A stretch of 64,000 nucleotides of DNA from NCBI GenBank assembly GCA_902604905.1, contig CACLAN010000001.1, positions 75,118-139,117 on the forward strand, read 5' to 3'. This DNA comes from an uncultured Alphaproteobacteria bacterium. Lineage in GTDB: Bacteria > Pseudomonadota > Alphaproteobacteria > HIMB59 > GCA-002718135. The notes beneath the pieces are model-generated. The model had not been told where the DNA came from. It saw nothing but the letters and a program-made list of their open reading frames with translations, and made no database searches. Numbering within the stretch: the stretch's first letter is position 1; each line of letters starts with the position of its first letter. The position numbers were made by a program, and so were the translations under genes. Positions 23,466 to 39,916 of this stretch are shown one piece after another.

Positions 23466-23864
23466 TTAAGTCGAAAATTTTTCTAGCATTTCATGGGGAA
23501 TTTTTGCAATTTTACCATTAAAAAAAACTGGAGTAATTAATATTTCCGAATCAACCAATAATTCTTCATTCTTTTTGATTTGCTGATGAAACAATATTTT
23601 TACTTTAGAAATGTTTATAATTTTTGTCGTAATTTTTAAAATATCCTCAAAATATGCTGGCTTTTTATAGTCTATCTTGCAATTCTTTACTACAAAATAG
23701 AATTTATATTTTTCTAGTATATTTTTGTGAGTGAAGCCTAAGTTATATAAGTAATCTGTTCTTCCTCTTTCAAGAAATTTTAGATAATTTGCATAATAAA
23801 CTCTTTCAGAAGCATCGGTATCTTCGTAATAAATTTTAATTTCTGTATTCATAAAATTGATCAA
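23466..23864 (-). CDS. 4HBT/YbgC-type acyl-CoA thioesterase
   Basis: IKIYYEDTDASERVYYANYLKFLERGRTDYL is the classic hot-dog YbgC N-terminal motif with its catalytic Asp. Confidence 0.8.
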   Translation of the reverse strand: MINFMNTEIKIYYEDTDASERVYYANYLKFLERGRTDYLYNLGFTHKNILEKYKFYFVVKNCKIDYKKPAYFEDILKITTKIINISKVKILFHQQIKKNEELLVDSEILITPVFFNGKIAKIPHEMLEKFST

Positions 23865-24963
23865 TAAATTGATTTAAATTGTCTGATATCTGAAAACCAA
23901 TTCCATAATTTTCATTTAATTCTAGATAACCGTTAATAATTTGAAATGATGGATTTACTATTTTTGTTCTGAGTTCATTTTCATTAATATCATATTCTAA
24001 ATATCCGTCAGGGTTTAAAGCTGACATTATATGAGCTGAAGAAATTAAACCAATAGCTCCTCCCAAATAATGTAACCATATTTTATTTTTTTTAATATTT
24101 TTACCTAAATCTAAGATGTCAGTGATACCTCCATAACGTGCTAAATCTGGTTGTAAAAACTGTATTTGTGTATCATTATCTAATTCATAAAATTTTTTTA
24201 AATAAATTAGATTTTCACCAAATGCTAAATTTTTGTGTAATTTGTTTAGTTGAACTATTTCAGATATCGAATGGTTTGCAGATATAGGTTCTTCTAACCA
24301 CAAATAATTGAAGTTTTTCAATTTACTAATATTTTCATGAACATTATCTAAGCTCCAAGCCTGGTTTACATCTAGCATATATTTTTCATTAGATGCTATA
24401 GTTTCTTCAATAGAAGTTATCGCTTTAATGTCTTCTAAAATATTAAAACCAATTTTAATTTTAAATCTATCTATGCCCAATAGTCGAGCTTCTTGAATTC
24501 TTTCTAAGTGTTCATCTCTGTTTATTCCACTTGCATAAACTTTAATTTTATTTTTGGATTGATCATTAATTAATTTGTTTAAGGGTTTTTTTTTAATTTT
24601 AGAAAAAAGATCCCATGCAGCACAATCTATACCAGAAAAAATGTTTTCAAAAGCACCAAAGTCACCTGTTTGATTTTTAATTGAATTAAATTTTTCTATT
24701 AAAAATTTTTTAACACTTGAGGGATCTTCAAATTGAAAATTAATTAAAAAATCAATGAAATAGTCTTTTAAGATTTCAAATCTATATCTACCGCCATGAT
24801 TTGGAAAATTACACCATATTTCCCCTATTCCATAATTATTATTTTCATCATCAATTTCTATAACTAAAGAGGATCTAAATTTGATATTACCAAAAGATGA
24901 AAGTACAGGATTTTTGTTGTTATATTTTAATAAATAAATTTTGATATTTGTTATTTTGATCAT
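23836..24963 (-). CDS. Enolase-superfamily enzyme (mandelate racemase/muconate lactonizing family)
   Basis: FKIKIG (K-x-K), with metal ligands in LDVNQAW, WLEEP and FGEN. Confidence 0.75.
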   Translation of the reverse strand: MIKITNIKIYLLKYNNKNPVLSSFGNIKFRSSLVIEIDDENNNYGIGEIWCNFPNHGGRYRFEILKDYFIDFLINFQFEDPSSVKKFLIEKFNSIKNQTGDFGAFENIFSGIDCAAWDLFSKIKKKPLNKLINDQSKNKIKVYASGINRDEHLERIQEARLLGIDRFKIKIGFNILEDIKAITSIEETIASNEKYMLDVNQAWSLDNVHENISKLKNFNYLWLEEPISANHSISEIVQLNKLHKNLAFGENLIYLKKFYELDNDTQIQFLQPDLARYGGITDILDLGKNIKKNKIWLHYLGGAIGLISSAHIMSALNPDGYLEYDINENELRTKIVNPSFQIINGYLELNENYGIGFQISDNLNQFIDQFYEYRN

Positions 24964-25835
24964 TTATTTTTAATAAAATTAAACATTGATGTCCAATCTA
25001 GATCTCCAAATTCTTTTTTTGAAGCATCATCATAAATTTTCTCTGCTGCCTTACCCATATTTAGATTTAAATTTTGTTCAGATGCAAATTGAATAGCAAG
25101 ACGTAAATCTTTTAATGCTAAATTATTTTTAAAACCTGGAGATACATCATTTTTAAAAACTTTAGCAGGATATGTCAAATTCATGTGTCCCTTCCCGGCT
25201 GCAGTTGTGAGCATTAATTCAATAGCCATTTTTTTGTCTATACCTGATTTATCAGCTAAATTTAAAGTTTCTGCTGTCAATATATTTAAGGCAATGGACA
25301 TGTAGTTATTTATAATTTTCATTTTACTACCTGAGCCATTTTCACCGCAATAAACTATATCGCTTCCCATAGTTTCTAATAAATTTTTTATATTCTTAAA
25401 TTCATCTTTATTACCACCTACCATTATTAAAAGAGTACCATCAATTGCATTCTGTACTAATCTTGCAACAGGTGCATCAAACATTTTTATGTTATTTTTT
25501 TTTAGCTCCTCATTAATAAAAATAGAATCATTAGGATTAATTGTACTCATATCAATTAATACAAAATTTTTATTATCTTGATAAATCAAACCATTTTTAC
25601 CAAAACATATTTCTTTTACATTGTCTCCATTTGGCAACATAGTAATGATTATTTCAACATTTTGAGATAATTCTGATAAACTTGATTTTTGGATACCTCC
25701 TAGTTTTTCTAAAGTATTAACTGAATCAGAATTAACAAAAGGATCATAAAAGGATAAACTATAACCTTTGTTAATAATATTAGATGCCATCGGGAAACCC
25801 ATTGTACCTATTCCAATAAATCCAATTTTTTTCAT
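24960..25835 (-). CDS. NAD(P)-dependent beta-hydroxyacid dehydrogenase (HIBADH/YihU-like family)
   Basis: MKKIGFIGIGTMGFPMASNI Rossmann motif; GSGSKMKIINN is the conserved catalytic Lys block. Confidence 0.85.
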   Translation of the reverse strand: MKKIGFIGIGTMGFPMASNIINKGYSLSFYDPFVNSDSVNTLEKLGGIQKSSLSELSQNVEIIITMLPNGDNVKEICFGKNGLIYQDNKNFVLIDMSTINPNDSIFINEELKKNNIKMFDAPVARLVQNAIDGTLLIMVGGNKDEFKNIKNLLETMGSDIVYCGENGSGSKMKIINNYMSIALNILTAETLNLADKSGIDKKMAIELMLTTAAGKGHMNLTYPAKVFKNDVSPGFKNNLALKDLRLAIQFASEQNLNLNMGKAAEKIYDDASKKEFGDLDWTSMFNFIKNK

Positions 25836-25849
25836 AACTATCTCCTTAT

Positions 25850-26776
25850 TTATAAATCTAAAGTCGATTTAAGTTTTTCAACTCTCTCCAAACCTTGATT
25901 TTCTAACCATTTAATAAATTCAGTATTTGATTGATTGCAAAATATATCAATTGAGTCTTGCCATAAAGATCTTCCACATAAAAAACCAAGACAATTAATG
26001 TTTAATTTCATTGAAATAGACATTGATTTATAAAAATTACTAAATTTCATTCCAGCACTCAAAAATACAAATGGCTTCATTGTTTTACCAAATGTATTCA
26101 ATAATATTTCTTCACAATAACTAATTGTATTAGCATTATTATAATCATCTAGAATGCTTTCATTAAAAGGAAATTCGATTTTAATAATGCTAACATTATA
26201 ATCTGGTTTAGAAAATTCAGAGTAAAAATATGTTATATATTCATGCTTTTTCTTATTATATTCTTCATTAGACTTTTTGATTAAAGGATCATTGTACAAT
26301 AAGGGCTCAAATAAAAATGGTTTATTTAAATTTAAACACATATTTCCTATTTTTTTTATTAAAATATTTTTTTTATTATTTATTTCTTGAGGAGAGTCTG
26401 GATTATAATACATAAAAAATTTAATTGCCTTAAAATCATCTATTGTTTTATCTATTGATTTATTAGTTGGTAGTTTAGTAATTCTTTCAACATTATCAAT
26501 GTTATAAGCATCATCTTCATATGCGATAATTTTTGGTATATTTAAATTTTTAAACTTTTCATGTTTTTCATATGTCTCAAAATCAAATAAAACAGCTGAA
26601 AGATTTGATCCTAATATTTGTATTATGTTTTTTTTAAAAAAAAAATAATCCTCATCTTTAAAATTATTTTTTTTTTGATTTATAATTTCTTTTAGACTCG
26701 TTCCCTGGTCTATTGCTAATGCAAAAAACTTTTTATTAATTAACACATCATTAATTAATTCTTTTTGATGCATCAT
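25850..26776 (-). CDS. Class I aldolase of the LacD/YihT (tagatose-bisphosphate / sulfofructose-phosphate aldolase) family
   Basis: FFALAIDQGTSLKEII (cf. ALAIDQRG), IIKIEFP (Schiff-base Lys strand) and FLSAGMKF...GFLCGRSLWQD (cf. LCGRATW). The track start at 26812 overlaps dhaK by 40 nt. The ATG at 26774-26776 gives an ATGA overlap with the dhaK stop and is preferred. Confidence 0.6.
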   Translation of the reverse strand: MMHQKELINDVLINKKFFALAIDQGTSLKEIINQKKNNFKDEDYFFFKKNIIQILGSNLSAVLFDFETYEKHEKFKNLNIPKIIAYEDDAYNIDNVERITKLPTNKSIDKTIDDFKAIKFFMYYNPDSPQEINNKKNILIKKIGNMCLNLNKPFLFEPLLYNDPLIKKSNEEYNKKKHEYITYFYSEFSKPDYNVSIIKIEFPFNESILDDYNNANTISYCEEILLNTFGKTMKPFVFLSAGMKFSNFYKSMSISMKLNINCLGFLCGRSLWQDSIDIFCNQSNTEFIKWLENQGLERVEKLKSTLDL

Positions 26777-27771
26777 AAGTGAAAATAAGGAACTGATGAA
26801 GGCTCCAGCCATAACTTTCTCATTTCTTCACTAGAATTTAGTAAAGATATAGAAAATCCTCCACTATCTTGAGTTGTGATGTATTCATTAATTAAAGGTT
26901 TAAATATTTGAATATTATATTTTGATAAATATTCTTCTAAATCATTAAATATTATTAATAATTCCATTAAAGTTGTAGACCCTGATCCATTAACAAATGG
27001 TATAACTATATCGCCCGATTTGTAATTAAAATCATCAAATATTTTATCTAACATAAATGAAATAATTTTTTTAGATGGTTGAATTTTTTGCCTACCATAT
27101 CCAGACTCTCCATGAACACCCATTCCAATAAAAATTTCATCTTCTTCAATTGTGAAAATTTTTTCTCCAGTAATTGGAGATGTGCCAGGGCTTATTGCAA
27201 CTGATAATGTTCTTGTATTATCAACAATTTGTTTTCCTAGACTTAGTAATTGTTCAATATCAGCACCTTTTTCAGATAAGGCTCCAAGTATTTTATAAAC
27301 AAATGTTGTACCTGCCCCTCCTCTTCTTTGATCTTCATTTCCTCTTGGTGCAGAAGCTATGTCATCATACATAATTAAACAATTAGCATTTATATTTTCA
27401 TCTTCAGCCATTTCTATTGCCATTTCTCCATTCATTACATCACCAGAATGATTAGAAATTAATAATAAAATAGAAGAATGTTCCTTAAAAATTTTAATTC
27501 CTTCAAATATTAAATCTCCTGATGGAGCAGAAAAAATGTCTCCGACAATATTAGCATCAAGCATACCCTCACCAACCCAACCTACCGCAATAGGCTCATG
27601 CCCAGATCCATTTCCAATCAAGATGGGAACTTTACTAAATTGTTTTTTATTTTTTCGACAAATAATTCTTTTATTTATTTCAGAAAATTTAACTCTGTCT
27701 GAATGTGATTTAACATAACCACTCAACATATCATCCACGATATTTATGTTATTATTAATTATTTTTTTCAT
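26773..27771 (-). CDS. dhaK: Dihydroxyacetone-kinase-type kinase, substrate-binding subunit (DhaK domain)
   Basis: GNGSGHEPIAVGWVGEGMLDA and GMGVHGE are canonical DhaK blocks. Confidence 0.85.
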   Translation of the reverse strand: MKKIINNNINIVDDMLSGYVKSHSDRVKFSEINKRIICRKNKKQFSKVPILIGNGSGHEPIAVGWVGEGMLDANIVGDIFSAPSGDLIFEGIKIFKEHSSILLLISNHSGDVMNGEMAIEMAEDENINANCLIMYDDIASAPRGNEDQRRGGAGTTFVYKILGALSEKGADIEQLLSLGKQIVDNTRTLSVAISPGTSPITGEKIFTIEEDEIFIGMGVHGESGYGRQKIQPSKKIISFMLDKIFDDFNYKSGDIVIPFVNGSGSTTLMELLIIFNDLEEYLSKYNIQIFKPLINEYITTQDSGGFSISLLNSSEEMRKLWLEPSSVPYFHL

Positions 27772-28366
27772 TATTAATTTCCTTAAAGAATTCTTTTAAT
27801 ATTATAGACGTTGAATATGCGCCTGGATCTATCACACCAACACCTTTTGAATCTAAAAACTTTGCTCTGCCAACACGAGCTTCCAAAGATTTTGTGTATT
27901 CGAGAGATTCATCAATTTTTGTAATTATTTTATCAAAATCAATAAGATTATTTTGAATTAATTCTTGATGAATAGGCACATAAATATCTAAAAAACTTTT
28001 ATCACCAAAATTTACTTTACCTCTTGTTTCTATTTTATTTATAGTATTTGAAAAAGTAGTTAAGATTGTATTATAAAGATCATTAAAATTTAAATTACCT
28101 AATTCTTTAAAGAAGATTGTCATCAAAATACCAGAAGCGCCACCCATAGAAATCCTCATCAATTTCGAAATTTCATTCATCAATGATATTGAATTATCAA
28201 ATTCATTATTTGTTCTAAAATGAGATACAGCTTCCTCTAGGCCTCTTAATATTGTTGTACCGTGATCTCCATCACCAATCTCTTGATCAAGCATATTAAT
28301 TTTTTGACAGTTTTCTCTAATTATTAAACAAGAATTAGTTATCCATTTTTTATGAAATTCTATCAT
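27755..28366 (-). CDS. dhaL: Dihydroxyacetone-kinase-type kinase, nucleotide-binding subunit (DhaL domain)
   Basis: LDQEIGDGDHGTT and MGGASGILM are canonical DhaL blocks. Confidence 0.8.
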   Translation of the reverse strand: MIEFHKKWITNSCLIIRENCQKINMLDQEIGDGDHGTTILRGLEEAVSHFRTNNEFDNSISLMNEISKLMRISMGGASGILMTIFFKELGNLNFNDLYNTILTTFSNTINKIETRGKVNFGDKSFLDIYVPIHQELIQNNLIDFDKIITKIDESLEYTKSLEARVGRAKFLDSKGVGVIDPGAYSTSIILKEFFKEINNEKNN

Positions 28367-29205
28367 TTAATAAAATTCTTTAAATATTTATAAGATTTTT
28401 GAATTGCATCAAAAGGATTATCTTCAATATTTCTCCATGTAAATAAATCTTTACTTGTCTCTTGGTTTGATTGAATAAACATTTCTAAAGTAACATTGCC
28501 AGAATAATTTATTGTATTTAAAGTTTCAAAAATTCTATTAAAATTTAATCCCCCTGAACCAGGTATACCTCTATCATTTTCTGCTACATGAAAATGAAAA
28601 ATATTATGATTTGCTTTGAGAATTGACGCGCACATATCTTTCTCTTCTATATTCATATGATAAACATCTAACAATAAACCAACGTGAGAATGATTGATCA
28701 TCGAGCATAATTCTAAACCTTCATCAACAGTGTTAATAAAATCAGTTTCATATCTATTTAGAGGCTCTATTCCTAATTTAATATCTTTATCTTCTAAAAT
28801 GTCTGTTAATCCGATTAGAGTATTTGATGAATTTTTATATTTTAGAGATTTATCTTTTCCATAATTATCACTTATTCCCCATGCAGTGTGTATAACCCCA
28901 GATAAAATTTTAGACCCCATAAGAGAAGTCAAATTAATAGCCTCTATGAGTTTATCCTTACCTCTTTTTCTAATATTTTGATTATTACTTGTTATATCTT
29001 CATCTTTAGACAAACCTGTTGTACATGTAATATTAATATCTAGATCTTTACTTAATCTACCTATTTCTATGGCTGACTTTTCGTTTTGACCTAGTAATGA
29101 TACTTCAACTGAAGAGTAACCAGCATCTCTACAAAGTTTAATATAAGGAGTAATATCCTCTGACCAATTTTTAACAAATGTTGCTGAATGAACTCCTAAT
29201 TTCAT
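28363..29205 (-). CDS. Xylose-isomerase-like TIM-barrel sugar(-phosphate) isomerase/epimerase
   Basis: 280 aa. LGIEPLNRYETDFINT, LLDVYHMNIEE and FHFHVAENDRG are the typical AP-endonuclease-2/XI-like TIM metal-ligand blocks. Confidence 0.8.
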   Translation of the reverse strand: MKLGVHSATFVKNWSEDITPYIKLCRDAGYSSVEVSLLGQNEKSAIEIGRLSKDLDINITCTTGLSKDEDITSNNQNIRKRGKDKLIEAINLTSLMGSKILSGVIHTAWGISDNYGKDKSLKYKNSSNTLIGLTDILEDKDIKLGIEPLNRYETDFINTVDEGLELCSMINHSHVGLLLDVYHMNIEEKDMCASILKANHNIFHFHVAENDRGIPGSGGLNFNRIFETLNTINYSGNVTLEMFIQSNQETSKDLFTWRNIEDNPFDAIQKSYKYLKNFIK

Positions 29206-30311
29206 TTAAGATTATTTAATTTTTTAAAAAAATCATTAAAAATTTCATCTCTATTAACACCAAAGGCTTCTCTAATAAGATGATTGCTATCATTTTTAAT
29301 CCAGTACAAATCATTATCAAGTGATGAGGAATTGATAATTTTTGTTGGTACCCAATTTGGATTTATTAACCAAGCAATATTAATAACATCCCATATGACC
29401 CATGTTCTCCAACTTTGATCTAAAACACCTCTTTGTTTATGCAAAGGGTTATTTGTGTATAGAAAATATAAGTAATCACCTATTTCACCTCTTCCTTTTA
29501 CAAATTCTTTCATATCGGGTAACGAAAGAGTTAACTGTGCCCCCACATTGAAACCTGGTAGATAAACATGCGCAACACCACATTCAAAAAGTAATTGAGA
29601 TGCTAAAACATCTTGAACTAAATTCAATGAGTTTTTATTATTATTAAAACTGTATGTAGGAAAACCAGATGTCCAAACAACTACTAAATTTTTAATAATT
29701 TCTGGGTTTGTTAAAAGAGCCGAAGCGATATTTGTAAGACACCCTATTGCACAAACATAAATCTTTTCATTTGAATATTTTTTACACATATCTACAATGA
29801 ATTTACTAGATTCAGTTACTATTGGTTCGTTATAATTTTCTAAATATTTAGGCGAACCTCTAAACACCATTCCTTCATGTTTAATATTAAGTTTATTAAA
29901 TATAGTAATTATTTCTTGATAGCTTTTTTCAACTCCTTCTTCTGGTGTATCAAAATAAATATCATTTGGATGAATATTTGCATCTATGAGTCCATTAACC
30001 CAAGATCTATAATTAGAAACTAAATTTTCTTTAGTATTATCAATAGTTTTATTGTTAGATATTATATCGAATGCTTCTATTAATTCGTCTTTATGATGTT
30101 GAAAAGAATAAGGCTCAGCAGTAACTCCTAAAAGGTCAATTTTATCTTTTGATAATAATGTCCATGCTAATGCAAATTGATCATCTATTTCATTAGCTGT
30201 ATCTGTATCAAGTATCATTTTGTTTTTTCCACTTGGTAAGGATAAATTGTTAAGCAAAATTTCTTTTGATAATTTTGGGAATTTATCTAAAATTTTTTTA
30301 GGAACTTGCAT
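29202..30311 (-). CDS. Inosine-uridine-preferring nucleoside hydrolase (IUNH) family protein, variant motif
   Basis: MILDTDTANEIDDQFALAW resembles the IUNH D-x-D-x-x-x-D-D fingerprint, but with a 2-residue insertion. It is preceded by about 31 extra N-terminal residues in the ORF. Confidence 0.7.
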   Translation of the reverse strand: MQVPKKILDKFPKLSKEILLNNLSLPSGKNKMILDTDTANEIDDQFALAWTLLSKDKIDLLGVTAEPYSFQHHKDELIEAFDIISNNKTIDNTKENLVSNYRSWVNGLIDANIHPNDIYFDTPEEGVEKSYQEIITIFNKLNIKHEGMVFRGSPKYLENYNEPIVTESSKFIVDMCKKYSNEKIYVCAIGCLTNIASALLTNPEIIKNLVVVWTSGFPTYSFNNNKNSLNLVQDVLASQLLFECGVAHVYLPGFNVGAQLTLSLPDMKEFVKGRGEIGDYLYFLYTNNPLHKQRGVLDQSWRTWVIWDVINIAWLINPNWVPTKIINSSSLDNDLYWIKNDSNHLIREAFGVNRDEIFNDFFKKLNNLK

Positions 30312-30342: not shown

Positions 30343-31359
30343 TTATACATCTTTTAATTTTTTAACCGCATCAATTATTTTTTTTGTTGAAGGAATATAA
30401 AAATCTTCCATTGGTGGACTAAATGGTACAGGTGTATGAGGAGCAGTTATTTTAATTACTGCAGCTTTTAAATCTGAAAAACATTTTTCTGAAATTAAAG
30501 AAGATATTTCTGAAGCCAAAGAACATTTAGGGTTTGATTCATCAACAACTATAACTTTACCAGTTTTTTTGACTGATTGAAAAATTAATTCCTCATCAAG
30601 GGGAGAATAAGTTCTTGGATCAACTATTTCACAGCTAATATTAATTTTTTCTAATTCATCAGCTGCTTCTTCAGCAAATAAGTTCATTCTTTGAATAGCA
30701 ATAATAGTAACATCAGTTCCTTCTCTTCTTATTCTACCTTTACCAATTGGAATAGGTTTTAAATCATCAGGCACTTCACAGCTTGTCATGTATAATCTTT
30801 TATGCTCCATAAAAATTACTGGATCATCATCTTTTATTGAGGATAGTAAAAGACCTTTGGCATCGTATGCATCATATGGCGCAACAACCTTTAGCCCTGG
30901 TATATGAGTATAAAGACTATAAAGAGTTTGTGAATGTTCACTACCTGCACGAAATCCTGCACCAACTACAGTTCTTACAACCATCGGTACTTTTTGTTTG
31001 CCACCAAACATGTATCTCACTTTAGCTGCTTGATTCATCATTTGATCAAAACATACACCGGCAAAGTCTACATACATTAATTCCACAATAGGTCTTAAGC
31101 CTGTCATTGCAGCTCCAATAGCGGCACCGAAAAAACCTGCTTCTGCAATAGTAGTATCTCGAACTCTTTCTCCACCAAATTTAGTATAAAGCCCCTGAGT
31201 AACACCAAAAGGTCCTCCCCATGCATCTTGTGTACCTTGATATTGTTCTCGACCTTTACCTCCTGCAATATCTTCACCCATCAAAATAACATTTTTATCT
31301 TCTTCAAATGATTGAACTAAGGCATCATTAATTGCATCTTTAACTGTTTTTATTGTCAT
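30343..31359 (-). CDS. 2-oxoacid/acetoin dehydrogenase E1 component, beta subunit
   Basis: MGEDIAGGKG...GVTQGLYTKFGGERVRDTTIAEAGFFGAAIGAAMTGLRPIVE is the canonical E1-beta (transketolase pyrimidine-binding) sequence. Confidence 0.9.
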   Translation of the reverse strand: MTIKTVKDAINDALVQSFEEDKNVILMGEDIAGGKGREQYQGTQDAWGGPFGVTQGLYTKFGGERVRDTTIAEAGFFGAAIGAAMTGLRPIVELMYVDFAGVCFDQMMNQAAKVRYMFGGKQKVPMVVRTVVGAGFRAGSEHSQTLYSLYTHIPGLKVVAPYDAYDAKGLLLSSIKDDDPVIFMEHKRLYMTSCEVPDDLKPIPIGKGRIRREGTDVTIIAIQRMNLFAEEAADELEKINISCEIVDPRTYSPLDEELIFQSVKKTGKVIVVDESNPKCSLASEISSLISEKCFSDLKAAVIKITAPHTPVPFSPPMEDFYIPSTKKIIDAVKKLKDV

Positions 31360-33912: not shown

Positions 33913-35163
33913 ATGAAAATTAAACTTAAATTTCTTACCTTAACATTTATAAGTTTATTTTTTTCAAAATTAGTATTTGCTGAAACTGCACCTGGATTTA
34001 ATTCATGGGATGATGTTGTTAAAGCAGCTGATGGCGGACAGGTAAACGTATATATGTGGGGTGGATCAGACGCTATCAATGGTTTTGTTGATGACTTTTA
34101 TGGAGTTCCGTTAAAAGAAAAGTATAATATAACTTTGAACAGAGTTCCTTTAAAGGGGACAGTTGACGCTGTTAACCAAGTACTAAGTGAAAAAGAAGCT
34201 GGAGTAACTGGCGATAATGGAAATATTGATTTAATTTGGATTAATGGAGAAAATTTCTGGACATTAAAACAAGCTAATCTTCTTTATGGACCATTCGCTG
34301 CTGGTTTACCCAACAGTGAATTTGTTGCTTGGGACAATCCAGCAGTAAACTTAGACTTTGGAAGACCTGTTGAAGGTATGGAAAGTCCATGGTCTAGTGC
34401 TCAGTTCCACTTTATGTATGACTCAGCTAGAAATAATTATGATGATATGCCTCGTAGTTATGCTGAATTAAGTAATTGGATAGAAGAAAATCCTGGAAGA
34501 TTTACTTACATAAGACCTGGTAAAGGTGGATTTGTTGGTACAAGATTTGTAAAACAAATTTTCTTTGAACTAAGTGGTGGACATGCGCAATGGGTAGGTC
34601 CATTCAATCAAGAATTATATGATAAGTGGGCTCCAGAAGTTTGGAAATTATTAAATTCTTGGGAAAAAGATCTGTGGAGAGGTGGAGAAACTTATCCAAA
34701 AGATAATGCAGAAATGCATAGTCTATTTGCTAATGGTGAAGTTGATTTAGACTTTACACAATCTCCAAGAGGTGCTGGACCTACAAATACTGCCGGAACA
34801 ACACCTCCAACATCAAGAGCATTTGCTTTTTATGAAAATATGATCGGAGATTTCAATTATTGGGCTATTCCTTATAACGCTCCTAACAAAGCTGCTGCTC
34901 TAGTATATGCAAACCTAGTATTAGAACCTGAACTACAAGCTGCTCAAGTACAACCAGCAAATGGTTTCTGCTGTGGTTGGGGTATTAGTACAGCTAAAGT
35001 TTCAGATTCTGCTGGAAAGGCAGCAATAGCTGAAGCTCAAAATAATCTTGGAGACGCTGCTGAGGATCAAGACATTCTTGCTAAAGCACTTGTTTCTGAT
35101 ATTGCTGCAGAATATCAAGATTTAATTGAAGCTGATTGGGAAGCAAACGTACTTTTAAAATAA
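33913..35163 (+). CDS. ABC importer periplasmic substrate-binding protein
   Basis: Signal peptide MKIKLKFLTLTFISLFFSKLVFA/ETAPG, followed by a 390-aa soluble domain. It is the first gene of an SBP, 2 permeases and ATPase set. Confidence 0.8.
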   Translation: MKIKLKFLTLTFISLFFSKLVFAETAPGFNSWDDVVKAADGGQVNVYMWGGSDAINGFVDDFYGVPLKEKYNITLNRVPLKGTVDAVNQVLSEKEAGVTGDNGNIDLIWINGENFWTLKQANLLYGPFAAGLPNSEFVAWDNPAVNLDFGRPVEGMESPWSSAQFHFMYDSARNNYDDMPRSYAELSNWIEENPGRFTYIRPGKGGFVGTRFVKQIFFELSGGHAQWVGPFNQELYDKWAPEVWKLLNSWEKDLWRGGETYPKDNAEMHSLFANGEVDLDFTQSPRGAGPTNTAGTTPPTSRAFAFYENMIGDFNYWAIPYNAPNKAAALVYANLVLEPELQAAQVQPANGFCCGWGISTAKVSDSAGKAAIAEAQNNLGDAAEDQDILAKALVSDIAAEYQDLIEADWEANVLLK

Positions 35164-35183: not shown

Positions 35184-36059
35184 ATGGGCGGAGAAAGATT
35201 AAAAATTATTTTATCTTTAACTCCGCCCCTTTTAATTATTTTTACTCTATTTTTTGGAGGAATTTTTTACGGTTTTTTACAAAGCTTAGGTTATCAACCA
35301 GCAATTGGAAAATATGAATTGAATTTTTCAGCATATTACAATGTTATGTTTTCCGAAAGATATGCAAAATTATTCTGGACTGGTTTAGGATTAAATTTAT
35401 GGGTCAGTTTTGCTAGTACTTTTTTAGCAGCAGTTTTGGCTTTATTTGGTGCTCTAGCAATAAGAAAAACATTTTTTGCAAAAACAATTTGTAATTTTAT
35501 ATATTCATTAAATCTACCAATGCCTCATTTAGTTGTAGCAGTTGGTATTATATTTGTGTTTTCTCAAAGTGGTTTATTAGCACGTTTAGCATCACAAATT
35601 GGATTAATTGCTAGTCCTGGAGATTTTCCTGTTTTAGTTAAAGATAAATATGGTTTTGGTATTATTCTTGCTTATATTTGGAAAGAAGCAGCATTCTTTT
35701 TTATAATTTTAATGTCAGTATTACAATCTTTGGGAGAAAATTTTGAAGAACTTGCTCAAAGTTTGGGAGCAAATAGATGGCAAAGATTTCGATATGTTAT
35801 TTTACCCTTGGTAATGCCAAATCTATTTTCTGCATCAATAATAGTCTTTGCCTTTAGTTTTGGCGCATATGAAGTGCCAGCATTACTAGGTGTAATTTAT
35901 CCTCAAATGTTACCCGTAATGGCATTTGAATTCTTTTTAAACCCAGATCTTAATGCAAGAAGTGAAGGAATGGCATTAAGTATTATTATTGCAATTATAG
36001 TAATGATTTTAGTTGTTCTTTATTTCTGGTTAACTCAGGCAAAAATTAGGAAAGATTGA
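35184..36059 (+). CDS. ABC importer permease 1
   Basis: 6 TM. EAA-loop ELAQSLGANRWQRFRYVILPLVMP. Confidence 0.85.
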   Translation: MGGERLKIILSLTPPLLIIFTLFFGGIFYGFLQSLGYQPAIGKYELNFSAYYNVMFSERYAKLFWTGLGLNLWVSFASTFLAAVLALFGALAIRKTFFAKTICNFIYSLNLPMPHLVVAVGIIFVFSQSGLLARLASQIGLIASPGDFPVLVKDKYGFGIILAYIWKEAAFFFIILMSVLQSLGENFEELAQSLGANRWQRFRYVILPLVMPNLFSASIIVFAFSFGAYEVPALLGVIYPQMLPVMAFEFFLNPDLNARSEGMALSIIIAIIVMILVVLYFWLTQAKIRKD

Positions 36060-36922
36060 TGAATAATAATTTAAAAAAAATAAACATATATGCAATTTAT
36101 TTAGGTGCATTTATTTTAATATTACCTCTTATCGCTTTCTTTATTAATGCATTTTCTTTTAGATGGTTTTATCCGCAAGTTATTCCAAAAGAGTTAAGTC
36201 TTCAAGCTTGGGTAAGGTTGAAATTAATACCAAAACCAGGACAAAGAACTTTCGATGGATTTATAGAACTTTGGGCTTCTAATCCTGCAGTTATTAAAGC
36301 ATTATTAAATAGTTTGAGTATTGGTTTTTTAGTGACAATTGTTTCAATAATTATCGCATTACCTGCAGCAAGGGTACTAGGTCTATTAAATTTTAGATTT
36401 AAAAAATTAATTATTTTTATAATGGTCTCTCCTACTATACTTCCTCCAATAGCTTTTGTTTTAGGATTGAATATCAATTTTATATCATGGGGTTTTTCAG
36501 GTAATTATTTTGGTGTATGTTTAGTGCACTTAGTTCCAATTATGCCGTATGTTGTTCTTACTATGACTGGAATATTTGCAAACTATAACCCTGATTTTGA
36601 GCATCAAGCAAGGACGTTAGGAGCAAATAAGACAAAAACATTTTTGTTAATTACTTTACCTGCTATAGCCCCAGGAATGGTTGTTGCAGCATTATTTGCA
36701 TTTTTAGTTTCATGGAGTCAGTATCTTTTAACATTTTTAATTGGTGCTGGAAAAGTTATGACACTACCGCTCCTTGTTTTTTCAACTGCTTCATCAGGAA
36801 ATCCAGCTTTAACAGCTGCAATATCAATTATATTTATTTTTCCTGCTATATTGATTTTATTTTTTACATCAAAATTTGTTTCTGGTGAATCTGGGGCTAC
36901 TAGTGGATTTGGGAAAATATAA
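36056..36922 (+). CDS. ABC importer permease 2
   Basis: 6 TM. EAA-loop HQARTLGANKTKTFLLITLPAIAP. 4-nt overlap with permease 1. Confidence 0.85.
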   Translation: MMNNNLKKINIYAIYLGAFILILPLIAFFINAFSFRWFYPQVIPKELSLQAWVRLKLIPKPGQRTFDGFIELWASNPAVIKALLNSLSIGFLVTIVSIIIALPAARVLGLLNFRFKKLIIFIMVSPTILPPIAFVLGLNINFISWGFSGNYFGVCLVHLVPIMPYVVLTMTGIFANYNPDFEHQARTLGANKTKTFLLITLPAIAPGMVVAALFAFLVSWSQYLLTFLIGAGKVMTLPLLVFSTASSGNPALTAAISIIFIFPAILILFFTSKFVSGESGATSGFGKI

Positions 36923-36924
36923 AA

Positions 36925-37980
36925 ATGAGTAAACTAAATATTAAAAATTTAATCAAAAGTTTTCCTAGCATGGATAGGCCAGCAGTAAACAATATAAATT
37001 TAGATATTGAAAGCGGAGAACTAGTTGCGTTTCTTGGACCTTCAGGTTGCGGTAAAACAACTATTTTAAAAATGATCACAGGATTGTTTCAACCTGATAG
37101 TGGAGATATTATACTTGATGAGCAATCACTATTAAAAATTCCAACTGAAAAAAGAGGGGTAGTTATGGTTTTCCAAAATTATCTTTTGTTCCCTTATATG
37201 AATGTAAATGAAAATGTTGGCTTTGCACTAAAAATGAAAGGTGTAGATAAAAATATAATAGATCAAAAAGTAAAAGAAATGTTAGAACTGGTAAAATTAC
37301 CAGATATTGGATTAAGAAAACCAAAACAACTTTCTGGAGGTCAACAACAAAGAGTTGCACTAGCCAGAGCATTGATATCTAATCCTAGAATATTGCTTCT
37401 AGATGAACCATTAAGTAATCTTGACGCACATTTAAGAGATGAAATGCGAGATTTAATTGTAACTATTCAACAAAAATTAAAAGTAACAACAATATTTGTA
37501 ACACATGATCAAGAAGAAGCGGTTCTTCTAGCAGATAAGATAGCTTTAATTTTTGATGGCGAATTACAAAATTTTACTTCTCCAAAAAATTATTATGAAA
37601 AACCAAAAAATATAAAAGCTGCAAAATTTTTTGGTGGAGTTAATTTTATTAATGCAAAGAAAGATAATAATAATCTATCTACTACTATTGGAACAGTTCA
37701 TTACAAAGGTGAAAATTATACAGATTTAAATGAAGATAATATAATTACTATTAGACCCGAAAATATTAAGTTAAGTAAAAATAATGATTTCAATGATAAT
37801 TCATTCAAAGGCTTAATTAAATCAGTTATATTTTCAGGAACTCATACTAGATACAAAATTATAGTAAAGGATTTAGAATTAGAATGCTCATTACAATCCG
37901 TAGGATTACAAGACATAAAAACAGATGATACAATTTATGTTCATTTACCCAGTGATAAAATATGGGCGATGAATGAATAA
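36925..37980 (+). CDS. ABC importer ATP-binding protein (PotA/MalK-like, with C-terminal regulatory/TOBE-like domain)
   Basis: Walker A GPSGCGKTT, signature LSGGQQQRVALARAL, Walker B LLLDEPLSNLD. Confidence 0.9.
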   Translation: MSKLNIKNLIKSFPSMDRPAVNNINLDIESGELVAFLGPSGCGKTTILKMITGLFQPDSGDIILDEQSLLKIPTEKRGVVMVFQNYLLFPYMNVNENVGFALKMKGVDKNIIDQKVKEMLELVKLPDIGLRKPKQLSGGQQQRVALARALISNPRILLLDEPLSNLDAHLRDEMRDLIVTIQQKLKVTTIFVTHDQEEAVLLADKIALIFDGELQNFTSPKNYYEKPKNIKAAKFFGGVNFINAKKDNNNLSTTIGTVHYKGENYTDLNEDNIITIRPENIKLSKNNDFNDNSFKGLIKSVIFSGTHTRYKIIVKDLELECSLQSVGLQDIKTDDTIYVHLPSDKIWAMNE

Positions 37981-39916
37981 AAATATTGCAACAATTTCTT
38001 TTTCAAAAAATAATATAATATCAAAACTTTCAAAACATATGTTTGGAACTAATCTGGAACATATTGGAGATGCAATTTATAGAAATGGAATTTGGGCAGA
38101 AGTAGTAGAAAATAGAAAATTTTGTGGTCCTGATAAATTAGTTTGGAACAATGGTTTAGAAAATGATCATTTAGATTTTGGCATTGTTCAGCCTTGGAAA
38201 GGTTATAACGCTTCTGCAAAACACGTGATGTACGCACATACTAACTCCGAATATATTGTAAAAGGTGAAGAGATTATTAGTAGATACGGGAGCGGCAAAC
38301 AATCTCAACAAATTACTATTCGAGAAAAATCACAAATACAAAGAGGTATTAAGCAAAAGATTAATATTATTGACTCAAAAGATGAATACGAATTCAGTAT
38401 TTATTTCAAAGGTGAAAATCAAAAAGTATTTATAAATATTGGAGAAATAAATTTTACTTTTAATGCAAATAAAAATTGGAAAAAAATAAAAAAAACATTT
38501 ACTTTTAAAAAAAGTAATAGCTTAAAAACCCTATCTATCTCTATTAAGTCTGGAACAATTTTTATTGCAAACTGTTCATTAATGCCAAAAAATACAATTT
38601 TTGGATTTAGAAAAGATATCACAGAAATGATTAAAGAATGGAAGCCAAGTTATATTCGTTGGCCTGGGGGTAATTTTCTTTCAGGTTATAATTGGCAGAA
38701 TGGTGTTGGAAAAAAAGATTACCGTCTCCCCTACTACGATCACGCTTGGTATCAATGGGAGTACAACGATGTAGGGACAGATGAATTTATGAAATGGTGT
38801 GAATATATTGGTAGCGAGCCAATGATTACCATCAATACTGGTGATGGTACTATTCAAGAAGCAAAAAATTGGATCGAATATATGATTGGATCAATTAACA
38901 CAAAATATGGAAAATTAAGATATAAAAACGGCAGAAAAAATCCTTATGAATTAGAAACAATTTTTATTGGAAATGAAATGTTTGGGGGATGGCAAATTGG
39001 TCATACAGATCCAGTTACTTATGCAAATAAATATAATGTTTTTGTAAAAGAGTTAAAAAAATTAAATAAAAAATTACGATTTATTGCGGTTGGTGCTTGT
39101 TCTGATCATTTTGGACATTGGAATGAATATGTTTTAAAAAATATTAAAGAAAAAATTGATGAATTAAGTGTCCATTATTATTCTATAAGAACTGAAAAAG
39201 ATAAAAAACATCCTGATTATAGAAAACGTTTTATACCAACAGTCGCTGCCGCAACAGAAGTGAGATTAATGTTGGATAGAACAATAAAAGAAATAAAAAA
39301 ATATTCTAATAAAAACATTAAAATAGCCTTTGATGAATGGAACACTTATGTGGAGGCAATTCCACCTTATTTTATTGAGAATTATAATATTGCTGATGCA
39401 ATTTACGCTGCCTCACTTCTCAACGCATGTATAAATAGAGGAAATATAATTACCAACACTGGTATTTATCATTTGATAAATGTAATGGGTAATTACCGAA
39501 TAGAAAAAAAGAAAATTTGGAAAACTCCAACAACACTTGTTTTAGAACTTTATACAAAATTTCATAAAGGTAAAATTTTAAAATCAGTTGTTAATTCTTC
39601 AACTTTTGTGTCTTTTAAATTAGGTAAACAGCCTGAATATAAAAATAATAAACTAATTGACTCTGCTGTAACAATGGATGGAAAAAATATATGTATGTCT
39701 GTTGTTAATAAATCAAGTTCAGAAAAAATACGTTTAAAGATTCCACATCTAGACAGGATAACTGAAAACTATTGTATTAAAGGATCTAATAAAGTTGACC
39801 TAAATACTTATTCAAATACTTCAAAGGTTAAGATCAAAAAAAATTCCTTAAAAATTAGTAAAGGATTTTTAATACTACCACCACACTCAATAAGTGTTAT
39901 ACTTTTTAATATATAA
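37973..39916 (+). CDS. Glycoside hydrolase family 51 (alpha-L-arabinofuranosidase-like), cytoplasmic
   Basis: IRWPGGNFLSGYNWQNGVG, FIGNEMFGGWQIGH (acid/base Glu) and IAFDEWN (nucleophile Glu) are GH51 blocks. No signal peptide. The start overlaps the ATPase stop by 8 nt. Confidence 0.8.
   Translation: MNKNIATISFSKNNIISKLSKHMFGTNLEHIGDAIYRNGIWAEVVENRKFCGPDKLVWNNGLENDHLDFGIVQPWKGYNASAKHVMYAHTNSEYIVKGEEIISRYGSGKQSQQITIREKSQIQRGIKQKINIIDSKDEYEFSIYFKGENQKVFINIGEINFTFNANKNWKKIKKTFTFKKSNSLKTLSISIKSGTIFIANCSLMPKNTIFGFRKDITEMIKEWKPSYIRWPGGNFLSGYNWQNGVGKKDYRLPYYDHAWYQWEYNDVGTDEFMKWCEYIGSEPMITINTGDGTIQEAKNWIEYMIGSINTKYGKLRYKNGRKNPYELETIFIGNEMFGGWQIGHTDPVTYANKYNVFVKELKKLNKKLRFIAVGACSDHFGHWNEYVLKNIKEKIDELSVHYYSIRTEKDKKHPDYRKRFIPTVAAATEVRLMLDRTIKEIKKYSNKNIKIAFDEWNTYVEAIPPYFIENYNIADAIYAASLLNACINRGNIITNTGIYHLINVMGNYRIEKKKIWKTPTTLVLELYTKFHKGKILKSVVNSSTFVSFKLGKQPEYKNNKLIDSAVTMDGKNICMSVVNKSSSEKIRLKIPHLDRITENYCIKGSNKVDLNTYSNTSKVKIKKNSLKISKGFLILPPHSISVILFNI

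Follow-up and report, generated by a model that had tools for sequence, protein, structure and literature searches.

A probable, so far undescribed glycoside-catabolic gene system in SAR11-type and other marine Alphaproteobacteria

Introduction

Which compound is broken down by sixteen closely packed genes of a marine bacterium, and through which sequence of reactions, is the question raised by a locus on contig CACLAN010000001.1 (assembly GCA_902604905.1, positions 75,118 to 139,117) of an uncultured Alphaproteobacteria bacterium. The stretch of 64,000 nucleotides analysed here is referred to as the window, and the locus, which a preliminary description had singled out as a divergent catabolic gene set, occupies its positions 23466 to 39916. 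Because the window has a G+C content of about 28%, encodes DmdA (above its equivalog cutoff) as well as GcvP, and carries a locus with near-identical copies in marine single-cell genomes labelled as uncultured Alphaproteobacteria, its genome fits the SAR11 type.

Our analysis indicates that this locus is very likely the SAR11 version of a conserved, so far undescribed glycoside-catabolic system of marine Alphaproteobacteria, which uses an isomerase, an epimerase, the two-subunit kinase DhaK/DhaL (DhaKL) and an aldolase. As to the chemistry, we tentatively favour, with somewhat less than even confidence, a route of non-canonical enzyme families that resembles the sulfoglycolytic Embden-Meyerhof-Parnas (sulfo-EMP) pathway and in which a glycoside would yield dihydroxyacetone phosphate (DHAP) and sulfolactaldehyde (SLA), the latter being reduced to 2,3-dihydroxypropane-1-sulfonate (DHPS).

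Conservation of the locus in marine Alphaproteobacteria

Homologous loci were collected by tblastn against plasmids, followed by the retrieval of gene contexts from Nitratireductor, Devosia, Hoeflea, Jannaschia, Monaibacterium and metagenomes. The tblastn search revealed three marine Rhodobacterales replicons on which a gene for a nucleoside-hydrolase-fold (IUNH-like) protein lies about 5 kb from a FucI-like gene, and the IUNH-like proteins of the Rhodobacterales, Hoeflea and Devosia clusters are all 48-50% identical to that of the window. This signature gene belongs to a cluster of conserved order: epimerase – DhaL – DhaK – LacD-type aldolase – (aldehyde dehydrogenase) – GntR – isomerase – ABC ATPase/substrate-binding protein/two permeases – IUNH-like hydrolase. 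The ten-gene core, which comprises an ABC importer of the Pot/YnjB type, the IUNH-like hydrolase, an isomerase with the AraA/FucI fold, a ketose 3-epimerase, DhaK/DhaL and a LacD-type aldolase, is carried by Marinovum, Parasedimentitalea, Nitratireductor, Devosia, Hoeflea, Jannaschia, Monaibacterium and many metagenomic loci, hereafter Roseobacter-type clusters. Ten window proteins have homologs in them at 22-50% identity, and homologs of the E1 alpha and beta subunits (E1α/β), the GH51 glycoside hydrolase, the reductase, the enolase-family protein and the thioesterase are absent from them.

A further set of about 45 loci, obtained from a metagenome scan and individual look-ups, is of the SAR11 type. 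Fourteen of the sixteen genes keep their synteny among SAR11-type loci whose proteins have diverged to identities of 45-90%, and to the shared core these loci add E1α/β, GH51, the reductase and the enolase-family gene, each constant wherever a locus spans its position; a GabD-like aldehyde dehydrogenase, a TauE exporter and a BetA-like oxidase are frequent extras. The E1 alpha gene is present in all of the roughly 40 loci that reach its position and GH51 in all 19 that extend that far. At the protein level, conservation of E1 beta is 85-91% in most SAR11-type variants, falling to 67-82% where divergence is greatest, and the enolase-family protein is 44-47% conserved in all of them. Between types A (the sub-type of the window) and B, the substrate-binding protein is 94% identical and the enzymes 45-86%. 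This co-conservation across diverged SAR11-type loci, together with the ten homologous genes in clusters of Rhodobacterales, Hoeflea, Nitratireductor and Devosia, bears out the treatment of the locus as a unit in the preliminary description. Isomerase homologs are also common in marine metagenomes, where they form two protein clusters at 90% identity with 638 and 964 sequences.

Some components vary. In the 23 SAR11-type loci that span the interval from DhaK to the HIBADH-family reductase, the aldolase occurs 20 times, a GntR regulator 18 times and an aldehyde dehydrogenase of the GabD/SSADH type 17 times; the regulator lies between E1 beta and the hydrolase in most variants. The three loci without aldolase are metagenomic, and the gene is likewise missing from the type-B loci L024-L026, L026 having the same gene map as L072, one of the three. 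Type-B loci (L024:1-2286; L025:1-2301; L072) also lack the thioesterase, and their enolase-family gene is followed by genes for a DUF4396 protein, a luciferase-like (LLM) oxidoreductase with weak subfamily matches, including SfnG at 38 bits, and an α/β hydrolase. All Roseobacter-type clusters examined upstream contain genes for an SCP-x-type thiolase, a zf-ChsH2/DUF35-like protein of about 125 aa and an acetate-CoA-ligase-like enzyme, often along with an MFS transporter.

A scan of genome contigs from one seed protein returned only SAR11 single-cell genomes and metagenome-assembled genomes (MAGs) that are 95-98% identical, and was uninformative on deep co-conservation. Two copies of the locus with 97-98% identity (L002 and L007) come from records labelled 'Methanobacteriota archaeon' (a MAG) and 'Gammaproteobacteria bacterium TMED225', and these contigs are probably mis-binned.

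Organization of the locus

All sixteen open reading frames (ORFs) were recovered at the coordinates first given, ten on the minus and six on the plus strand (Table 1), and the overlaps, gaps and spacer previously listed were reproduced from the ORF list. Minus-strand genes share 4-nt overlaps at 31356-31359, 29202-29205, 28363-28366 and 24960-24963 and longer ones of 17 nt (27755-27771) and 29 nt (23836-23864), with gaps of 31 nt (30312-30342) and 14 nt (25836-25849), while plus-strand genes overlap at 36056-36059 and 37973-37980. The aldolase starts at 26812 in the mechanical ORF list; an in-frame ATG at 26776, however, produces the expected ATGA overlap with the DhaK stop codon, agrees better with the N-termini of homologous aldolases, and is the probable true start. 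The divergent spacer, in which promoters and a control region are presumed, yielded only short AT-rich inverted repeats, and promoter and terminator scans, like the inverted-repeat search itself, were uninformative in such AT-rich DNA. The window variant has no regulator gene, and most other variants have a GntR/UTRA regulator.

About half of the window ORFs of at least 150 aa, including all those flanking the locus, were annotated by a hidden Markov model (HMM) scan. The family calls made in the preliminary description hold at the level of Pfam or NCBIfam HMMs or of the fold, with the qualifications given below.

Table 1. Positions of the genes and other features of the locus, and of one gene set of Roseobacter-type clusters
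Feature	Position	Strand	Matches and remarks
BASS-family (bile acid:Na+ symporter family) transporter	22577..23413	-	SBF 104 bits; TIGR00841 162 bits, below cutoff
YbgC-like 4HBT acyl-CoA thioesterase	23466..23864	-	4HBT and 4HBT_2; TIGR02799 129 bits (cutoff 141)
Enolase-superfamily enzyme with KxK and QPDxxKxGG motifs	23836..24963	-	MR_MLE_N and MR_MLE_C
YihU-type (sulfolactaldehyde-reductase-like) beta-hydroxyacid dehydrogenase	24960..25835	-	Both HIBADH-family NAD-binding domains match
LacD-type class I aldolase	25850..26812 (start probably 26776)	-	DeoC/LacD
DhaK, substrate-binding subunit of Dak-type kinase	26773..27771	-	Dak1 316 bits
DhaL, nucleotide-binding subunit of Dak-type kinase	27755..28366	-	Dak2 106 bits; TIGR02365 130.9 bits (cutoff 138.3)
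Ketose 3-epimerase, xylose-isomerase-like TIM barrel	28363..29205	-	AP_endonuc_2
Nucleoside-hydrolase-fold (IUNH-like) hydrolase	29202..30311	-	IU_nuc_hydro PF01156 66 bits (cutoff 34)
E1 beta, without lipoyl domain	30343..31359	-	Transket_pyr and Transketolase_C; PRK09212 349 bits (cutoff 321, passed)
Thiamine-diphosphate-dependent E1 alpha	31356..32333	-	First gene of the minus-strand operon; Pfam E1_dh 227 bits; under pyruvate dehydrogenase equivalog cutoffs
Divergent intergenic spacer	32334-32439		106 nt
AraA/FucI-fold aldose-ketose isomerase, distantly SftI-like	32440..33879	+	479 aa
Periplasmic substrate-binding protein, YnjB/PotD-type	33913..35163	+	SBP_bac_8; PRK11622 380 bits (cutoff 203, passed)
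ABC permease 1, PotB/PhnU/CysT-like	35184..36059	+	BPD_transp_1
ABC permease 2, PotC-like	36056..36922	+	BPD_transp_1
ABC ATPase with TOBE_2 domain	36925..37980	+	ABC_tran and TOBE_2
GH51 glycoside hydrolase with internal insertion of about 150 aa	37973..39916	+	Last gene, after the transporter genes
Thiolase/zf-ChsH2/CoA-ligase set of Roseobacter-type clusters	L016:363-3560; L114:1135-4335; L115:1466-4673; L116:2379-5601

Predicted functions of the conserved core

The importer is not of the common sugar type, since the NCBIfam neighbours of its permeases are polyamine, phosphonate, sulfate, molybdate and thiamine permeases rather than CUT1 sugar permeases, and the best NCBIfam matches of its ATPase are PhnT2-like and PotA-like, both under cutoff. 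A sequence search of the PDB gave no relative of the substrate-binding protein.

The IUNH-like hydrolase belongs to PF01156 by its Pfam score, by its fold and by an acidic N-terminal motif in the variant form DTDxANEIDD, so that the earlier call stands; its AlphaFold model (pLDDT 93.5) retrieves nucleoside hydrolases as every top PDB match (target-normalised TM score 0.72-0.78, 14-20% identity). The variant motif is two residues longer than the canonical nucleoside-hydrolase motif for Ca2+ and ribose, which we take to be DxDxxxDD. Invariant within the family are the motif DTDxANEIDDQ, a stretch containing N194 (TNIASA in most members) and the pair W307-D308, which stands where a His-Asp motif would be and which is presumably of the purine-stacking type. 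In the contigs L081-L085 (for example L083:3543-11101), a 55%-identical IUNH-like subgroup adjoins a PnrA/Bmp-type nucleoside-binding protein, a short-chain dehydrogenase/reductase (SDR) and a xanthine-dehydrogenase-like molybdoenzyme. This neighbourhood suggests true nucleoside hydrolysis in the wider family.

The second hydrolase, described at first as cytoplasmic, is a genuine GH51 member, as had been proposed: over residues 209-643 the match to Thermotoga GH51 arabinofuranosidases reaches 239 bits, Alpha-L-AF_C exceeds the Pfam cutoff, and the N-terminal NLEHIG, GNE (E335) and DEWN (E455) motifs are kept, with both catalytic glutamates invariant. The additional segment of about 150 aa, previously thought to be an N-terminal extension, is an internal insertion and is atypical of the family. 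A GH51 protein with 37% identity and a like insertion architecture is encoded within the transporter operon of L112, a cluster from outside SAR11.

The isomerase has no Pfam match, the Arabinose_Isome and Fucose_iso models included, and a PDB sequence search gave nothing; the earlier FucI/AraA-like call is therefore upheld by structure and not by Pfam. Its AlphaFold model (pLDDT 90) matches L-arabinose isomerases with a TM score of 0.77 (E 1e-26) and L-fucose/D-arabinose isomerases at 0.73-0.75. Against the NCBIfam model of the sulfoquinovose isomerase SftI (NF048012) the protein scores 140 bits over its full length (E 9e-41, cutoff 700). The Roseobacter-type isomerases score less well on the SftI model (76 bits), and PF02952 was found in two of them.

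For the xylose-isomerase-like TIM barrel, which is kept in all cluster types, closeness to characterised 3-epimerases places the protein in the ketose 3-epimerase family as far as sequence can assign it. In the PDB it is closest to D-psicose, D-tagatose and L-ribulose 3-epimerases (E down to 2e-36), and 22 of the 24 PDB matches with E up to 1e-10 bear an epimerase name, mostly that of a ketose 3-epimerase. Among the NCBIfam models, that of D-psicose 3-epimerase scores highest (206 bits, under the cutoff of 300).

Both Dak subunits score below the equivalog cutoffs, and no DhaM gene lies within the locus. His56, Asp109 and His218 of DhaK (E. coli numbering) are invariant across all cluster types, and the protein is 46-49% identical to the Roseobacter-type DhaK. 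Judging from the gene context, the substrate is very probably other than dihydroxyacetone, and we propose that DhaK may act as a ketose 1-kinase.

The aldolase lies above the cutoff of the NCBIfam tagatose-bisphosphate-aldolase subfamily model PRK12858 (211 bits against 184), and its best PDB matches are LacD tagatose-1,6-bisphosphate aldolases (1e-29). The equivalents of the Schiff-base lysine (YihT K193) and of D22, K124, E159, S226 and R253 are invariant, the phosphate-site residues included. The LacD half of the original LacD/YihT-like assignment is thus confirmed by HMM and PDB matches, whereas the resemblance to YihT holds at the superfamily level only: identity to YihT is 21%, YihT is not in the PDB match list, and a specific YihT-like identity was rejected since LacD enzymes are far closer.

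The reductase, the enolase-family enzyme and their association with sulfonate genes

The reductase offers a link to sulfonates. Its best NCBIfam model is sulfolactaldehyde 3-reductase (300 bits, cutoff 348) and its best PDB match is YihU (6sm7, 210 bits), the next being a HIBADH at 155 bits; identity to E. coli YihU is 38%. The sulfonate pocket of YihU is formed by N174, S178 and the R123 backbone (PMC8006165). The window protein and YihU have in common the motifs PVxR123, K171-x-x-N174-N-Y-M-S178 and TAAGKGH, at all three of which E. coli GarR differs, and the pocket positions and flanking motifs of the reductases of SAR11 types A and B are identical to those of YihU. On these residues the enzyme qualifies as predicted YihU-type, and the parallel to sulfo-EMP drawn in the preliminary description gains strength. 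A comparable arrangement occurs on an unrelated contig (L080:10001-14243). Directly after an IUNH-like gene comes one for a reductase whose 411 bits exceed the sulfolactaldehyde-reductase equivalog cutoff of 348, and genes for a PhyH dioxygenase and for a sulfatase come next; the surroundings lack genes of sugar catabolism, and the context is a minimal one of hydrolase and sulfonate-alcohol dehydrogenase.

The enolase-family protein belongs to the superfamily by the conserved motifs FKxKxGF, DxNQ, EEP, GEN and QPDxxKxGG, all its equivalog scores are far under cutoff, and its best PDB match, 3ddm, is itself of unknown function. Relatives with 28-38% identity were found in Sulfitobacter, Bradyrhizobium and L116. 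In Sulfitobacter the gene, plasmid-borne, shows translational coupling to TauE; its Bradyrhizobium counterpart adjoins a Tau-sized ABC transporter and an orthologous GMC oxidase; and in L116 the gene and a GMC oxidase come after a Roseobacter-type cluster. In the commonest SAR11 variant the order is aldolase, GabD-like dehydrogenase, reductase and enolase-family gene, and several of these loci continue with a TauE/SafE exporter, a BetA-like GMC oxidase and a second enolase-family gene. In type-C loci, TauE directly follows the enolase-family gene in four cases and a BetA-like GMC oxidase in six, and the aldehyde dehydrogenase is SSADH/GabD-like, a family that includes known SLA dehydrogenases (PMC11131964). 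Candidate functions of the enolase-family enzyme are sulfolactate sulfo-lyase or racemase, or sulfo-acid dehydratase. Within the superfamily, SfcF is a proven sulfosugar-acid dehydratase (PMC12421959).

A clade of enolase-family proteins with the motifs GWGExxxNxP, FKxKxGF and QPDxxKxGG was observed beside TauE/SafE and/or a BetA-like GMC oxidase at L031:8255-10137, L032:7980-10702, L116:17218-20015 and L053:16832-20569. It spans Sulfitobacter, Bradyrhizobium, a Roseobacter-type contig and SAR11 type C, and may represent an undescribed sulfolactate/sulfonate lyase, racemase or sulfo-acid dehydratase.

The E1 pair and the thioesterase

The nearest annotated relatives of E1 alpha (about 40% identity) are E1 subunits of acetoin dehydrogenases, which adjoin their own E2. 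Neither an E2 nor an E3 was found among the annotated window ORFs or in related loci, so that the pair is an orphan, as noted before, and the combination of an E1 with its cognate lipoylated E2 and E3 that characterises 2-oxoacid and acetoin dehydrogenase complexes was not observed here. Oxidative decarboxylation of downstream pyruvate or sulfopyruvate and acyloin-type cleavage of a ketose are candidate roles. The aldolase-less type-B loci had raised the idea that E1α/β substitutes for the aldolase in C-C cleavage; this was down-weighted given the aldolase in 20 of 23 SAR11-type loci.

The thioesterase, which had been counted as part of the system, is correctly assigned to its family, but it occurs only in type-A loci and is absent from types B and C. 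It is probably a variable accessory and not a core part.

Proposed route and the evidence that weighs against it

In the favoured sulfo-EMP-like route, the importer would take up a glycoside and the nucleoside-hydrolase-fold enzyme would free its aldose, in SAR11 probably with the assistance of the insertion-bearing GH51. The isomerase would convert the aldose to a ketose, the 3-epimerase would provide the 3S configuration accepted by class I aldolases, DhaK/DhaL would phosphorylate the open-chain ketose at C1, and the LacD-type aldolase would split the ketose 1-phosphate into DHAP and an aldehyde. In SAR11 this aldehyde would most probably be 3-sulfolactaldehyde or a very close sulfonate analogue, which the YihU-type reductase would convert to DHPS, perhaps exported via the adjacent BASS transporter. 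In sister variants, the GabD-like dehydrogenase would oxidise the aldehyde to sulfolactate, the enolase-family enzyme would act next, and TauE would dispose of sulfite or sulfonate. Starting from the observed gene content, coupling, co-conservation, folds, and catalytic and pocket residues, we infer the order of these steps, the C1 specificity of the kinase and the identities of the aldehyde and the substrate. The imported compound appears to be furanoside- or nucleoside-like, with a sugar that is barred from the ordinary pentose and hexose kinase routes.

Several observations weigh against this route. The abundant natural sulfosugar conjugates are α-sulfoquinovosides, and the known sulfoquinovosidases are GH31 or NAD-dependent enzymes; neither glycosidase of the locus fits α-sulfoquinovosides, and the conversion of sulfoquinovose to sulfofructose requires no 3-epimerase. 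Because of these two mismatches the substrate is probably a sulfosugar conjugate other than the usual α-sulfoquinovosides, perhaps an undescribed one that is furanosidic or ribo/arabino-configured; in the searchable literature there is no report of a furanosidic or ribo-configured sulfosugar, or of a sulfonated pentose or nucleoside. To our knowledge, Dak-type kinases act on trioses and tetruloses and none is known for hexuloses. The reductase remains under the YihU equivalog cutoff despite its 300 bits, the aldolase is just 21% identical to YihT, type-B loci have no aldolase, and the constant E1α/β has no assigned step. Finally, Roseobacter-type clusters contain no sulfonate-linked gene in cis, except the GMC/enolase pair in L116. 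They carry instead a betaine-aldehyde-dehydrogenase-like enzyme, the acetate-CoA-ligase-like enzyme, the SCP-x-type thiolase and, inside or beside several of them, a PNP_UDP_1 nucleosidase/phosphorylase, accessory genes that point towards a nucleoside with a non-sulfonate side chain.

Alternative explanations

These accessory genes lead to the alternative that survives best, unlikely as we judge it to be: a route like the DHAP shunt, the pathway logic of which is established (PMC10986504, PMC12632272), for exogenous 5'-deoxy-nucleosides or 5-deoxypentoses such as 5'-methylthioadenosine, 5'-deoxyadenosine, methylthioribose and 5-deoxyribose. The hydrolase would free a 5-substituted ribose, the isomerase would give an open-chain 5-deoxy-ribulose, the 3-epimerase would bring it into the xylulose configuration, DhaKL would form the 1-phosphate, and the aldolase would release DHAP and a C2 aldehyde (acetaldehyde or methylthioacetaldehyde) to be reduced or oxidised; the SAR11 sulfonate-type genes would then be a separate, adjacent module for DHPS or sulfolactate. 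The nucleoside-hydrolase fold with its Trp-Asp pair, read as purine-stacking, speaks for such a route, as do the PnrA-type and xanthine-dehydrogenase-like neighbours of the related IUNH subgroup, the PNP_UDP_1 genes, and the constant presence of the acetate-CoA-ligase-like enzyme and thiolase with the Roseobacter-type cluster. It also explains the 3-epimerase, since class I aldolases require 3S, and it suits the covalent mechanism of DhaK, which requires a free carbonyl: 5-deoxy-ketopentoses always have one. However, the YihU-type anion pocket is ill-suited to neutral C2 aldehydes, GH51 is left without a role although it is constant in SAR11 and recurs in L112, and the supposed second module has no operon of its own, the aldehyde dehydrogenase, reductase, enolase-family gene and TauE being coupled or contiguous with the sugar genes. 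A GMC/enolase pair follows a Roseobacter-type cluster too, and MtnN, MtnP, MtnK, MtnA and a class II aldolase are all absent from the locus.

Both halves of the gene content, the pathway for a C5-blocked ribose and the DHPS-type module, would be covered by a ribofuranoside whose aglycone is a sulfonate, that is, a glycoside of DHPS; we nevertheless consider this improbable. The only such class known to us is that of the arsenosugars, 5-deoxy-5-dimethylarsinoyl-β-D-ribofuranosides of DHPS, glycerol sulfate or glycerol, and we know of no non-arsenical DHPS glycosides. On this account the hydrolase would free DHPS, which the YihU-type enzyme in reverse, the aldehyde dehydrogenase or GMC oxidase, the enolase-family enzyme and TauE would process, and the C5-blocked ribose would yield DHAP and a C2 aldehyde, with arsenosugars the precursor of dimethylarsinoyl-ethanol or -acetate. 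Dimethylarsinoylethanol is reported to be a degradation product of arsenosugars. L080, with just the hydrolase, a bona fide YihU and a sulfatase and with no sugar-catabolic genes, is in keeping with this account, as are the betaine-aldehyde-dehydrogenase-like enzyme of Roseobacter-type clusters, a PNP_UDP_1 enzyme that could take a nucleoside precursor, and the cluster of Hoeflea prorocentri (L021:12759-14303), which abuts genes for ArsR, a low-molecular-weight-phosphatase-type ArsC and an aquaglyceroporin. Against it, this is the sole arsenic-gene adjacency in more than 100 loci, GH51 and E1 are left without explanation, and the flux of arsenosugars is tiny in comparison with the investment of a streamlined genome in sixteen genes for carbon catabolism.

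About equally improbable is a mosaic, in which the conserved ten-gene sugar module is merely co-transcribed with unrelated neighbours (E1α/β, the enolase-family gene, the thioesterase and GH51) and no single substrate exists. The variation of the thioesterase and aldolase among variants, the lack of an assigned step for E1 and the enolase-family gene, the frequency of overlaps in tightly packed SAR11 genomes and the lineage-dependent accessory content would agree with it. Yet E1α/β, GH51, the reductase and the enolase-family gene remain with the core in all SAR11-type variants despite identities of 45-80%, GH51 recurs in the transporter operon of an unrelated lineage (L112), the enolase-family gene recurs with a GMC oxidase beside a Roseobacter-type cluster, and in most variants the GntR regulator is embedded between E1β and the hydrolase.

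Less probable still is an ordinary neutral-sugar route, in which GH51 or the hydrolase would free L-arabinose or D-ribose and a ketopentose 1-phosphate would be cleaved to DHAP and glycolaldehyde, the latter being reduced, or oxidised to glycolate, a compound that can replace glycine for SAR11. The intact catalytic residues of GH51, the AraA fold of the isomerase and an L-ribulose 3-epimerase among the structures closest to the epimerase are compatible with it, and LacD-type aldolases tolerate several ketose configurations. But the transporter is of the Pot/Phn/YnjB type and not a CUT1/CUT2 sugar system, the anion pocket of the reductase is of the YihU type, the locus has an association with TauE, canonical pentose kinases would render DhaKL and the epimerase superfluous, and Roseobacter-type clusters have no GH51.

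Very improbable, lastly, is the specific proposal that the core degrades 5-deoxy-5-substituted β-D-ribofuranosides in the form of arsenosugars, including the DHPS-linked 'sulfonate' arsenosugar and 5'-deoxy-5'-dimethylarsinoyl-adenosine, with, at the same low probability, the hydrolase freeing DHPS for the YihU-type/aldehyde dehydrogenase/enolase-family/TauE module and the ribose giving DHAP and dimethylarsinoyl-acetaldehyde as precursor of dimethylarsinoylethanol and dimethylarsinoylacetate; if true, it would supply the missing enzymology of the long-postulated route from algal arsenosugars to arsenobetaine. Other signs of an arsenic link were discarded, as the SBF neighbour is of the BASS type and not Acr3, the MFS protein beside the Nitratireductor cluster is the mobile resistance gene product FloR and an ArsP_1 protein is Cu/Zn-efflux-like, which leaves the ArsR/ArsC/MIP genes of Hoeflea alone.

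Comparison with described pathways

The sulfo-EMP-like route that we favour parallels the E. coli pathway (YihQ, YihS, YihV, YihT, YihU) in its succession of glycoside, aldose, ketose, ketose 1-phosphate, DHAP plus C3 aldehyde, and alcohol. The window aldolase shares the DeoC/LacD class I superfamily with YihT and keeps the Schiff-base lysine and the arginine, and the reductase falls in the YihU subfamily with the same sulfonate-pocket residues. In contrast, the isomerase has an AraA/FucI fold and is not of the YihS family (PF07221); the kinase is DhaK/DhaL, with no PfkB gene in the locus, whereas YihV is of the PfkB type, a family in which sulfofructose kinases have the sulfonate triad K27-N109-R138 (PMC8006165). 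The GH31 sulfoquinovosidase YihQ is replaced by the nucleoside-hydrolase-fold enzyme and GH51, uptake is by an ABC system instead of YihO, and a ketose 3-epimerase, the orphan E1α/β and the enolase-family enzyme are added. SftI, the isomerase of the Bacillus sulfo-TAL/SFT pathway, has the sole curated family model that matches the window isomerase, which lies far under the equivalog cutoff of that model; a transaldolase is absent from the locus.

In the DHAP shunt (MtnN or MtnP, MtnK, MtnA, Ald2; DrdK/DrdI/DrdA), too, a nucleoside is cleaved and a terminally blocked pentose passes through a ketose 1-phosphate to DHAP and an aldehyde, the latter then undergoing reduction or oxidation (PMC10986504). 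The enzyme families all differ, however; the isomerase of the locus would act on the free sugar ahead of the kinase, and the locus has a 3-epimerase and an uptake system. L-fucose/L-rhamnose catabolism (FucI, FucK, FucA, FucO) resembles the locus in the order of isomerase, ketose 1-kinase, aldolase and aldehyde reductase/dehydrogenase and in the FucI-related isomerase fold, but the locus has a Dak-type rather than an FGGY kinase, a class I rather than a class II aldolase, and a HIBADH/YihU-type reductase rather than an iron-dependent alcohol dehydrogenase. Membership of the sulfo-EMP, L-fucose and DHAP-shunt pathways is therefore refuted at their defining enzymes, save for the YihU-type reductase and, at the superfamily level, the aldolase. 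A partial precedent for the kinase is found in erythritol/threitol catabolism, where Dak-family tetrulose kinases phosphorylate open-chain ketoses larger than dihydroxyacetone alongside TIM-barrel isomerases and epimerases; unlike DhaK/DhaL, they are single-chain and ATP-dependent and take C4 substrates, and they occur with no aldolase, hydrolase or sulfonate-type reductase.

Alphaproteobacteria do catabolise sulfosugars other than those based on glucose, as shown by the sulfofucolytic Entner-Doudoroff (ED) pathway of Paracoccus wurundjeri (SfcH, SfcD, SfcF and SfcE with SuyAB and TauE), which unites sulfoglycolysis, desulfonation and TauE export in one organism (PMC12421959). One such sugar, sulfofucose, occurs in brown algae (Fucaceae) (PMC12421959). 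The likeness to our locus, drawn from the description of SfcF, is that an enolase-superfamily enzyme acts on a sulfosugar acid; the difference is that the Paracoccus route is oxidative and ED-type, with an SDR dehydrogenase, a lactonase and an HpcH aldolase, families that are all absent from the SAR11 locus. Of the sulfosugar routes listed in PMC12421959, namely sulfo-EMP, -ED, -SFT/TAL, -TK, -SMO, -SDO and sulfofucolytic ED, none draws on a nucleoside-hydrolase-fold enzyme, on GH51, on DhaK/DhaL or on a ketose 3-epimerase. In the searchable full-text literature, moreover, we found no description of the gene set and nothing relevant on SAR11 and sulfoquinovose or on an enolase-superfamily sulfolactate lyase. 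These results agree with the earlier statement that the enzyme combination corresponds to no characterised pathway.

Neighbouring genes

The BASS gene next to the thioesterase is syntenic solely in near-identical type-A genomes; the protein is a possible organic-anion exporter, and its membership of the system is uncertain. A gene for a PhyH-family Fe(II)/2-oxoglutarate dioxygenase (21797-22591, plus strand) converges with it, overlapping its 3' end by 15 nt; the dioxygenase was rejected as a common component, since the window and L080 proteins are 22% identical.

On the other side, directly after GH51, positions 40003-42726 (plus strand) encode three proteins: a serine O-acetyltransferase, a relative of cysteine synthase A (PRK10717 454 bits, above the cutoff of 387) and a protein resembling cystathionine γ-synthase/lyase. 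This sulfur-amino-acid trio adjoins the putative sulfonate locus and is not conserved beside the type-B locus, and the cysE, cysK-like and metB-like genes were dropped as parts of the system, not being conserved next to other variants.

Further away, DmdA, the dimethylsulfoniopropionate (DMSP) demethylase (520 bits, cutoff 410), is the first gene of a minus-strand run at 9487-13319 that includes two EamA-family transporters and a DapA-like (dihydrodipicolinate-synthase-family) protein. A second HIBADH-family dehydrogenase, paired with an MFS transporter at 13562-15632 (minus strand), is unrelated to the locus studied here. At 3299-8912, two proteins with class-III nucleotide-cyclase domains, one of them with TPR repeats, flank a cyclic-nucleotide-binding MscS-type channel, a signalling content that is notable for a streamlined genome.

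Implications for SAR11 and the marine sulfonate cycle

SAR11 is already known to catabolise DHPS (PMC11131964). If the favoured route from a glycoside to DHAP and DHPS or sulfolactate is true, it would establish a new producer-consumer link in the marine organosulfonate network and the carbon-sulfur cycle, and could be a source of dissolved DHPS that is not directly derived from phytoplankton. The enzymology would be new as well: a Dak-type kinase would serve as a sugar 1-kinase, a nucleoside-hydrolase-fold enzyme and an insertion-bearing GH51 would act in the release of a sulfosugar or deoxy-sugar, an E1 component would operate without its own E2, and the enolase superfamily would possibly gain a C-S lyase or sulfolactate racemase. 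As cultivable Roseobacters, Hoeflea and Devosia carry related clusters, the hypothesis is directly testable.

SAR11 bacteria are usually seen as poor in carbohydrate catabolism and as reliant on other plankton for sulfur compounds. A dedicated and widely distributed pathway of 14-16 genes would alter that view.

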